Source: Laetmonice hystrix
Taxonomy: Eukaryota
Direction: 5' to 3'
Assembly (NCBI GenBank): GCA_965235115.1
Contig: OZ249436.1
Coordinates: forward strand, 16,246,001-16,310,000
Length of the DNA stretch: 64,000 nt
Under the pieces are notes generated by a model, which saw nothing but the letters and a program-made list of their open reading frames with translations, was not told where the DNA came from and ran no database searches. Of this stretch, positions 23,440 through 23,940 are shown in pieces (position 1 is the stretch's first letter; every line of letters begins with the position of its first letter). The translations under genes and the position numbers were made by a program.

Positions 23440-23940
23440 ATGAATACGACAGCATTTTTAGCGGCAATCACTCTTCTCGCACTAGTCGGAGTAGCGACTG
23501 CTTATGAAGACTTGGCAGGTTTTTTCCCGGATGACGACAGTGAAGATGTGTCCGCAGATAAGAGATACTACCTCAGTTCATCCTGTCGTCGCTGTATGCA
23601 CAATCGAAACGACTACGCCGCTTGTCTCAACTGCTATTCTCGCACCGGGCCAATACCTTACTACGGCACTGCCAAAAGAGCATTTGATGACTTGTCGTCT
23701 TTCCTGCCGGAGCCTTATGACAGGACGAGGTCCAAGCGGGGTTCATTCCTGGCCTGCAAGTGCTGTTTAAGTTTGCACAGATCCAGTTGTTGTGGCCGGT
23801 GTGGTTATTACGGACCTGAGAAGCGCTCCGAGTATAACCCAAGCTTCACCGACATCTACTCCGCTGGAGGCTGTGCATGTTGTGACTCCGGAGCTTTTGA
23901 TTTTGGCTGCTGTCTTCGTTGCATGAAGAAGCGGAAGTGA
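23440..23940 (+). CDS. Secreted cysteine-rich prepro-peptide (neuropeptide/prohormone or toxin-like precursor), 166 aa; possibly of the lophotrochozoan CLCCY type
   Basis: ATG follows a splice acceptor (ttctcctgttccag, ending 23434). Hydrophobic signal peptide MNTTAFLAAITLLALVGVATA, then an acidic pro-region and KR, KR, RSKR, KR and KKRK cleavage sites. These flank one Cx2Cx9Cx2C peptide and two CxCCx7-8CCx2C peptides. Confidence 0.88.
   Translation: MNTTAFLAAITLLALVGVATAYEDLAGFFPDDDSEDVSADKRYYLSSSCRRCMHNRNDYAACLNCYSRTGPIPYYGTAKRAFDDLSSFLPEPYDRTRSKRGSFLACKCCLSLHRSSCCGRCGYYGPEKRSEYNPSFTDIYSAGGCACCDSGAFDFGCCLRCMKKRK

Follow-up and report, generated by a model that had tools for sequence, protein, structure and literature searches.

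Two annelid precursors, AYNPY of Platynereis dumerilii (V5TBY8 / KF515949) and ASYY of Urechis unicinctus (QUP52038.1 / MT162139), are the closest described counterparts of the gene characterized here. Both entered the literature as precursors of neuropeptides (Conzelmann et al., 2013, PMC3890597; Hou et al., 2020, PMC7737342), and each was called species-specific. In the available sections of the Platynereis study, AYNPY is placed among the precursors with no ortholog found outside Platynereis, and is noted for its repeated peptides, its mass-spectrometry support and its cysteine residues. Mass spectrometry picked up two linear AYNPY peptides that have KR on either side in the precursor (PMC3890597), and therefore the basic sites of the Platynereis protein are cut. 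In the available version of the authors' peptide table, these two linear peptides are the only entries for the AYNPY precursor, and the cysteine-rich products are absent from it (PMC3890597). The AYNPY transcript stands at 3 RPKM in the egg and 20-27 at 24-48 h, reaches 78-94 between 72 h and 15 days, and declines in the adult (PMC3890597), a course that agrees with the general neuropeptide profile in the available part of that study. The available text on Urechis lists ASYY among five precursors 'unique to U. unicinctus' and gives it only a weak match (E=0.03) to a Capitella protein (PMC7737342). We came upon no in situ hybridisation result for either precursor in the sections of these reports that were available, the Urechis paper having examined four other precursors (PMC7737342).

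Nowhere in the full-text literature searched, subscription journals and the supplements of further papers excepted, did we find AYNPY and ASYY equated, a paper that came up under both names, or a receptor or function given for either, in keeping with the preliminary description of this DNA, which knew of no receptor or function for the peptides that it had in mind. The accession numbers of five family members are likewise not mentioned in the literature full text.

The gene lies in a 64-kb window, by which we mean the whole stretch of Laetmonice hystrix DNA analysed here, and consists of a single, uninterrupted and intron-free open reading frame of 166 codons. Measured from stop to stop, this frame has 183 codons and is the longest of the five in the window that reach 150 aa. 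Because it is the longest frame, has 23 relatives and shares with them conserved cysteine and KR columns, the ORF is a real gene and a chance ORF is excluded. It is present in one copy in the 627-Mb genome (35 contigs). A splice-like site five bases 5' of the start codon (Table 1) suggests that an intron may lie in the 5' UTR, and the two ATTAAA hexamers, 27-55 bases 3' of the stop, suggest a short 3' UTR. Three sequencing runs cover the locus; all come from one sample, are genomic-DNA-like and have an even depth of ~40-70 over intergenic sequence, and among the runs checked for Laetmonice hystrix no RNA run on record covers the precursor.

The 166-aa translation contains the peptides, cysteine spacings and basic sites exactly as they were first quoted, and the prohormone architecture that had been recognized, with a predicted signal peptide, spacers and dibasic sites around disulfide-rich peptides, is present. 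Peptides 1 and 2 do both end in YYG-x-x-KR, and no glycine directly precedes any basic site, so that an amidation signal is absent, as had been reported. The signal peptide is predicted from a hydrophobic core at residues 7-21 that contains the A-x-A motif, and the region aligns with the Platynereis segment removed as signal peptide (at residue 26/27 in the available portion of the authors' secretome file); an AlphaFold2 model places a helix at residues 3-26. The 4-Cys module occupies residues 49-65 and is followed by the tail PIPYYG, while the 6-Cys modules occupy residues 106-121 and 145-161, the second of them C-terminal, just before the basic tail.

Table 1. Parts of the Laetmonice hystrix precursor gene and adjoining signals, in window coordinates.
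Feature	Residues	Positions	Strand	Basis
Candidate 3' splice site, pyrimidine tract + AG, 5 bases 5' of ATG		23419..23434	+	sequence reading
AYNPY/ASYY-type preproneuropeptide CDS (P0001), 166 aa, complete, stop included (ATG at 23440, TGA 23938-23940)	1-166	23440..23940	+	ORF and homologs
Predicted signal peptide, core LAAITLLALVGVATA, A-x-A before Y22	1-21	23440..23502 (next part starts at 23503)	+	sequence reading
Acidic N-terminal spacer, with KR 41-42	22-40	23503..23565	+	weakly conserved
Peptide 1, 36 aa, 4 Cys, Cx2Cx9Cx2C, ends PYYGTA, with KR 79-80	43-78	23566..23679	+	4-Cys module census, segment identity
Linear peptide AFDDLSSFLPEPYDRTRS, with KR 99-100 (RSKR 97-100, furin-type)	81-98	23680..23739	+	identity, BLASTP alignment
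Peptide 2, 27 aa, 6 Cys, CxCCx7CCx2C, ends GYYGPE, with KR 128-129	101-127	23740..23826	+	module census, Cys columns, AlphaFold2
Peptide 3, 33 aa, 6 Cys, CxCCx8CCx2C, with C-terminal KKRK 163-166	130-162	23827..23937	+	module census, Cys columns
Two ATTAAA variant polyadenylation hexamers		23967-23972, 23990-23995	+	sequence reading

The surrounding DNA is poor in long frames, with five stop-to-stop frames of at least 150 aa in the 64 kb, and the four others resemble translations of repeats or low-complexity sequence, such as a poly-proline run at 6053-6577. An element of ~870 bp at 22320-23191, whose terminal inverted repeats measure 40 nt (83% complementary) and whose longer inverted arms measure 184 nt (81%), ends ~250 bp upstream of the precursor ATG. 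In the DNA-like runs its words reach a depth of about 3x10^5, compared with about 55 in the flanks, and runs X1 and X3 have contigs in which 22321 is followed directly by 23186, with 864 bp omitted. The element resembles a MITE-type transposon of very high copy number, and its insertion here seems to be polymorphic in the sample that was sequenced. Three tandem arrays with 96-99% matches lie a short way downstream of the gene, at 24412-24695 (56 bp x 5.1), 25204-25807 (32 bp x 18.9) and 26043-27345 (118 bp x 11.0), the first of which gives rise to repeated short minus-strand ORFs.

A phmmer search with the window protein, in which every one of 1.84 billion representatives was read, returned 23 relatives at E<=0.001, ten at E<=1e-10 and one at E<=1e-30, and a word-indexed search gave two closer relatives at 81% and 55% identity. 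Among the relatives is the entry 'ASYY [Urechis unicinctus]' (P0007; phmmer 2.3e-19), which BLASTP aligns over nearly the full length at 3e-30 and 40% identity. A search seeded with another relative, P0006, reached the 'AYNPY neuropeptide' of Platynereis dumerilii (P0037), and this aligns with the window protein over its full length (BLASTP 6e-20). In both alignments the three cysteine modules line up, together with the basic sites on either side of them. Exact look-ups identified further members as hypothetical proteins of Capitella teleta (P0017), Lamellibrachia satsuma (P0011), Paralvinella palmiformis (P0023) and the limpet Lottia gigantea (P0025). The named relatives are thus annelids plus one mollusc, and those at E<=1e-10 are all annelids, which agrees with the lophotrochozoan setting proposed at the outset. 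No Pfam family, zinc-binding families included, matched the window protein at E<=10, and a word-indexed profile search with an alignment of 25 sequences returned four proteins, every one of them already in hand. Two matches were discarded: a pangolin 1174-aa collagen-like protein (P0020; E=2.8e-6 over 13 short stretches) is a low-complexity artefact, and the top ESM Atlas match, 'neuropeptide S' at 0.75, falls under the meaningful level.

The gene is a new member of a known, if barely characterized, proneuropeptide family and not an orphan sequence; the suggestion that it might encode a novel scaffold had to be given up, since BLASTP shows it to be orthologous to the catalogued AYNPY and ASYY proneuropeptides. 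The same alignments indicate that AYNPY and ASYY, each called species-specific, are one family across annelids. The Urechis-only status of ASYY is wrong, because relatives are found in other annelids and in Lottia. We further consider it likely that the Laetmonice precursor, as the ortholog of Platynereis AYNPY and Urechis ASYY, is released as signalling peptides.

The likeness to ASYY extends, in the part of the published record available, to the order of the parts: predicted signal peptide, 4-Cys module, spacer, two 6-Cys modules and a basic C-terminus. However, peptide 2 of the Urechis precursor ends, in that record, in ASYYGKR, the predicted Tyr-amide from which the family takes its name, whereas in the window protein the glycine is followed by P-E-KR and there is no amidation. 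The main difference from AYNPY lies between modules 1 and 2, where the Platynereis precursor, as available, carries six linear AYNPY/AVDPY-type peptides and the window gene has one degenerate copy.

Conservation across the family was assessed in an alignment of 25 members (A2), from which P0020 was dropped and to which P0037 and P0038 do not belong. The columns conserved in at least 90% of sequences comprise the start methionine, cysteines (C52, C62, C65, C108, C109, C117, C118, C145, C147, C148, C157, C158 and C161) and dibasic sites (K79 R80, K99 R100 and K128 R129), so that both cysteine spacing and KR sites are kept in related species, as the prohormone interpretation had anticipated. The KR at 41-42 is conserved in 100% of close relatives and 90% of distant ones. 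A regular-expression census of the same 25 members found one 4-Cys module in 21, one or more 6-Cys modules in 24 and at least two in 20; the canonical layout, a 4-Cys module plus two of the 6-Cys type, occurs in 17 of the 25. The 4-Cys module follows the pattern Cx2C-x8-9-Cx2C with an aromatic PYY/PYF-G tail, the 6-Cys module the pattern C-x-CC-x7-9-CC-x2-3-C, and dibasic cleavage sites lie at conserved positions around every module; the window protein has the first pattern once and the second twice, with the dibasic sites in place. The eight members outside the canonical layout are P0026, described next, P0016, with its N-terminus cut, P0023, which stops just past module 2, P0021, which has lost cysteines, and P0013, P0015 and P0022, each with one module absent or outside the pattern, together with the Lottia protein P0025, which has only two 6-Cys modules. 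The eighth, P0026 (299 aa), has five 6-Cys modules, each with basic flanks, and no 4-Cys module; evidently, to judge from this arrangement, the module can multiply as conventional repeated neuropeptides do.

Other features vary inside the family. The amidation site YYGKR is present in P0007-P0010 and P0017, and the window protein reads GYYGPEKR at that place. Repeated AYNPY-type peptides are missing from the window protein, which has one xPY[DEA] motif, PEPYD; at least two such motifs occur in two of the 25 aligned members, as well as in P0037 and P0038. The AYNPY repeats therefore appear to be a lineage feature and not family-defining. Expanded linear repeat arrays stand between the cysteine modules of P0005, P0006, P0013, P0019 and P0021. 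In P0013, P0019 and P0021 the repeats are of the types SFFDT...W, FLDTDPDW and GLPINNVGFLPGGGLLD, found where Platynereis has its AYNPY repeats and unrelated to them, and the inter-module region seems a hot spot of lineage-specific peptide arrays.

The segment between peptides 1 and 2 had been described as an acidic spacer. Such a segment is present, but to call it a mere spacer does not do it justice, as its 74% identity to the three closest relatives is as high as that of peptides 1 and 2. Nine of its positions (F82, D84, L85, S87, F88, L89, P90, Y93 and D94) are invariant in alignment A1, and BLASTP lays residues 81-98 over the last AYNPY-type peptide of the Platynereis precursor. By this alignment, the segment would be the sole surviving, degenerate counterpart of the repeated AYNPY-type peptides. 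We read it as probably a fourth product rather than a mere spacer because of its identity in close relatives and its position over the last AYNPY peptide.

The steps by which the precursor would act can be set out from these features. The signal peptide (1-21) would direct the precursor into the secretory pathway, presumably in neurons, and there the 16 cysteines would pair as disulfides, two in peptide 1, three in peptide 2 and three in peptide 3. Cleavage by prohormone convertases would follow at the conserved sites (KR, RSKR and KKRK), after which a carboxypeptidase would remove the basic residues. Four products are expected: a 36-aa peptide with four cysteines, an 18-aa linear peptide with a PYD motif, and peptides of 27 aa and 33 aa with six cysteines each. 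The cysteine-rich modules are predicted to form short helix-turn-helix hairpins, and the released peptides would act as secreted signals on putative receptors.

An alternative, which we think unlikely, is that the cysteine modules are carrier or sorting parts, comparable to neurophysin or to the C-terminal cysteine pairs of spiralian precursors, and that the linear peptides are the real signals. The linear AYNPY peptides are indeed the only ones found by mass spectrometry in the available Platynereis data, the segment 81-98 matches peptides 1 and 2 in close-relative conservation, and the linear arrays are expanded in the five members named above. However, the picture changes when the identity of each segment to the window protein is compared between three close relatives and 15 distant canonical members. 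Peptides 1, 2 and 3 are 76%, 72% and 58% identical in the close relatives and still 42%, 41% and 37% in the distant ones, whereas the N-terminal spacer (22-40) falls from 46% to 11% and the linear segment (81-98) from 74% to 20%. Since the modules keep 37-42% distant identity against 11-20% for the spacers, it is the cysteine modules that form the conserved core of the family, and not the linear repeats or the amidated tail. In the carrier interpretation one would also have to account for a linear part that differs in kind by lineage, with two or more xPY[DEA] motifs in only two of 25 members, for conserved dibasic flanks belonging to every cysteine module separately, and for a module that ends in several orthologs in YYGKR, an amidation signal typical of released peptides.

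AlphaFold2, run with the 25-sequence alignment, gave a moderate model (mean pLDDT 67.0, pTM 0.35). It has a helix pair on peptide 1 (47-54 and 59-66, with block pLDDT about 80) and another on peptide 2 (100-112 and 115-121), the block of peptides 1 and 2 reaching pLDDT 75-81, and a single helix on peptide 3 (155-165); the linkers at 32-41, 77-83 and 128-142 are of low confidence. Short helical hairpins stapled by disulfides would fit this model, which we do not count as strong evidence for them. Compared with the PDB by Foldseek, this moderate model had no match at E<=10, and the single hit of a sequence profile search of the PDB, a cytochrome c555 construct at E=0.7, is noise. The 6-Cys pattern equals the 4-Cys pattern with one extra cysteine pair, and this nesting suggests that the three modules may have arisen by internal triplication. 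Compared by hhalign, the modules gave probabilities of 19-28% (P about 1e-3), and reversed controls gave 0.7-12%, the near-palindromic cysteine pattern making that control a weak one.

The preliminary description also raised the possibility of a toxin or antimicrobial scaffold, in which case the secreted products would serve defence instead of endogenous signalling. In its favour, the peptides are small, rich in disulfides and basic, and to our knowledge their cysteine framework is not one known from hormones. We nevertheless hold this idea to be quite improbable. The gene is single-copy and the module layout is constant over six named annelid genera and one mollusc, whereas fast-evolving multigene families are the more usual pattern for toxins and antimicrobial peptides. 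Furthermore, Foldseek found no toxin or defensin structure in the PDB for the moderate model, and the Platynereis transcript, in the data available, is present as early as the 24-h larva and has a neuropeptide-like profile. As to known toxin folds, the inhibitor cystine knot has the spacing C-C-CC-C-C and the window protein has C-CC-CC-C; the misfit to knot spacing noted at the outset thus stands, and we know of no catalogued conotoxin framework that this spacing matches. That the CxxC...CxxC and CxCC...CCxxC motifs bind metal in the manner of zinc ribbons or metallothioneins, with no disulfides, is very improbable: Cx2C-x9-Cx2C is formally a zinc-knuckle spacing, and P0010 was auto-named 'paraquat-inducible protein A', presumably from that cysteine pattern, but the hydrophobic, presumed signal sequence at the N-terminus and the conserved dibasic sites point to the oxidising secretory pathway, Pfam gave no zinc-binding or other match, and the family profile found nothing credible among PDB sequences.

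The CxCC core had at first been likened to CLCCY, a lophotrochozoan proneuropeptide for which we know of no receptor. The two are alike in being secreted, cysteine-rich and non-amidated lophotrochozoan precursors. No CLCCY protein is among the 23 phmmer relatives. In the available text and sequences of Thiel et al. (2021; PMC8557429), CLCCY precursors are of ~85 aa and carry, behind a single basic site, one peptide whose eight cysteines have the knot-like order C-C-CC-C-C-C-C. A by-eye comparison with four of these sequences found neither the three-module layout nor the CxCC...CCxxC module of the window protein, whose modules hold 4, 6 and 6 cysteines, and the proposed link was abandoned.

The Lottia gigantea member, LOTGIDRAFT_171555 (P0025), is a protein of 122 aa with two 6-Cys modules of the same spacing and with basic flanks; it differs from the window protein in having no 4-Cys module. 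Its score against a profile made from the remaining 24 members is 45.0 bits, whereas 2000 shuffles of its own sequence reach 7.2 bits at best, and it aligns with the window protein by BLASTP at 6e-10. P0025 did not turn up in motif searches of the searched parts of mollusc and spiralian supplementary datasets, and a short-motif search of the supplement text of Thiel et al. (2021) and De Oliveira et al. (2019), in the portions searched, gave no AYNPY-type precursor, an absence that counts for little with motifs so short. The oyster precursors CCCGS and GSWN, weighed as mollusc counterparts by description alone, could not be linked to the family. A pre-annelid origin of the family is probable, resting on this one named mollusc sequence.

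In summary, our preferred interpretation is that of a signalling precursor whose modules are themselves released, and it can be taken one step further, albeit tentatively and at rather less than even confidence. The ancestral, constrained products of the family may have been the three disulfide-locked helical-hairpin peptides and not the linear AYNPY peptides, in which case they would form an orphan hormone system older than the annelid-mollusc split, with a framework, C-x-CC-x7-8-CC-x2-C, and a fold that have no solved counterpart. If so, the receptor for these peptides is still to be found. The family that unites AYNPY and ASYY spans six or more named genera of annelids and probably one mollusc, and the Laetmonice gene is a minimal form of it, with one degenerate linear peptide against six in Platynereis. 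For the peptide-receptor screens of Platynereis, the core of this orphan system may offer a defined, conserved set of folded ligands.
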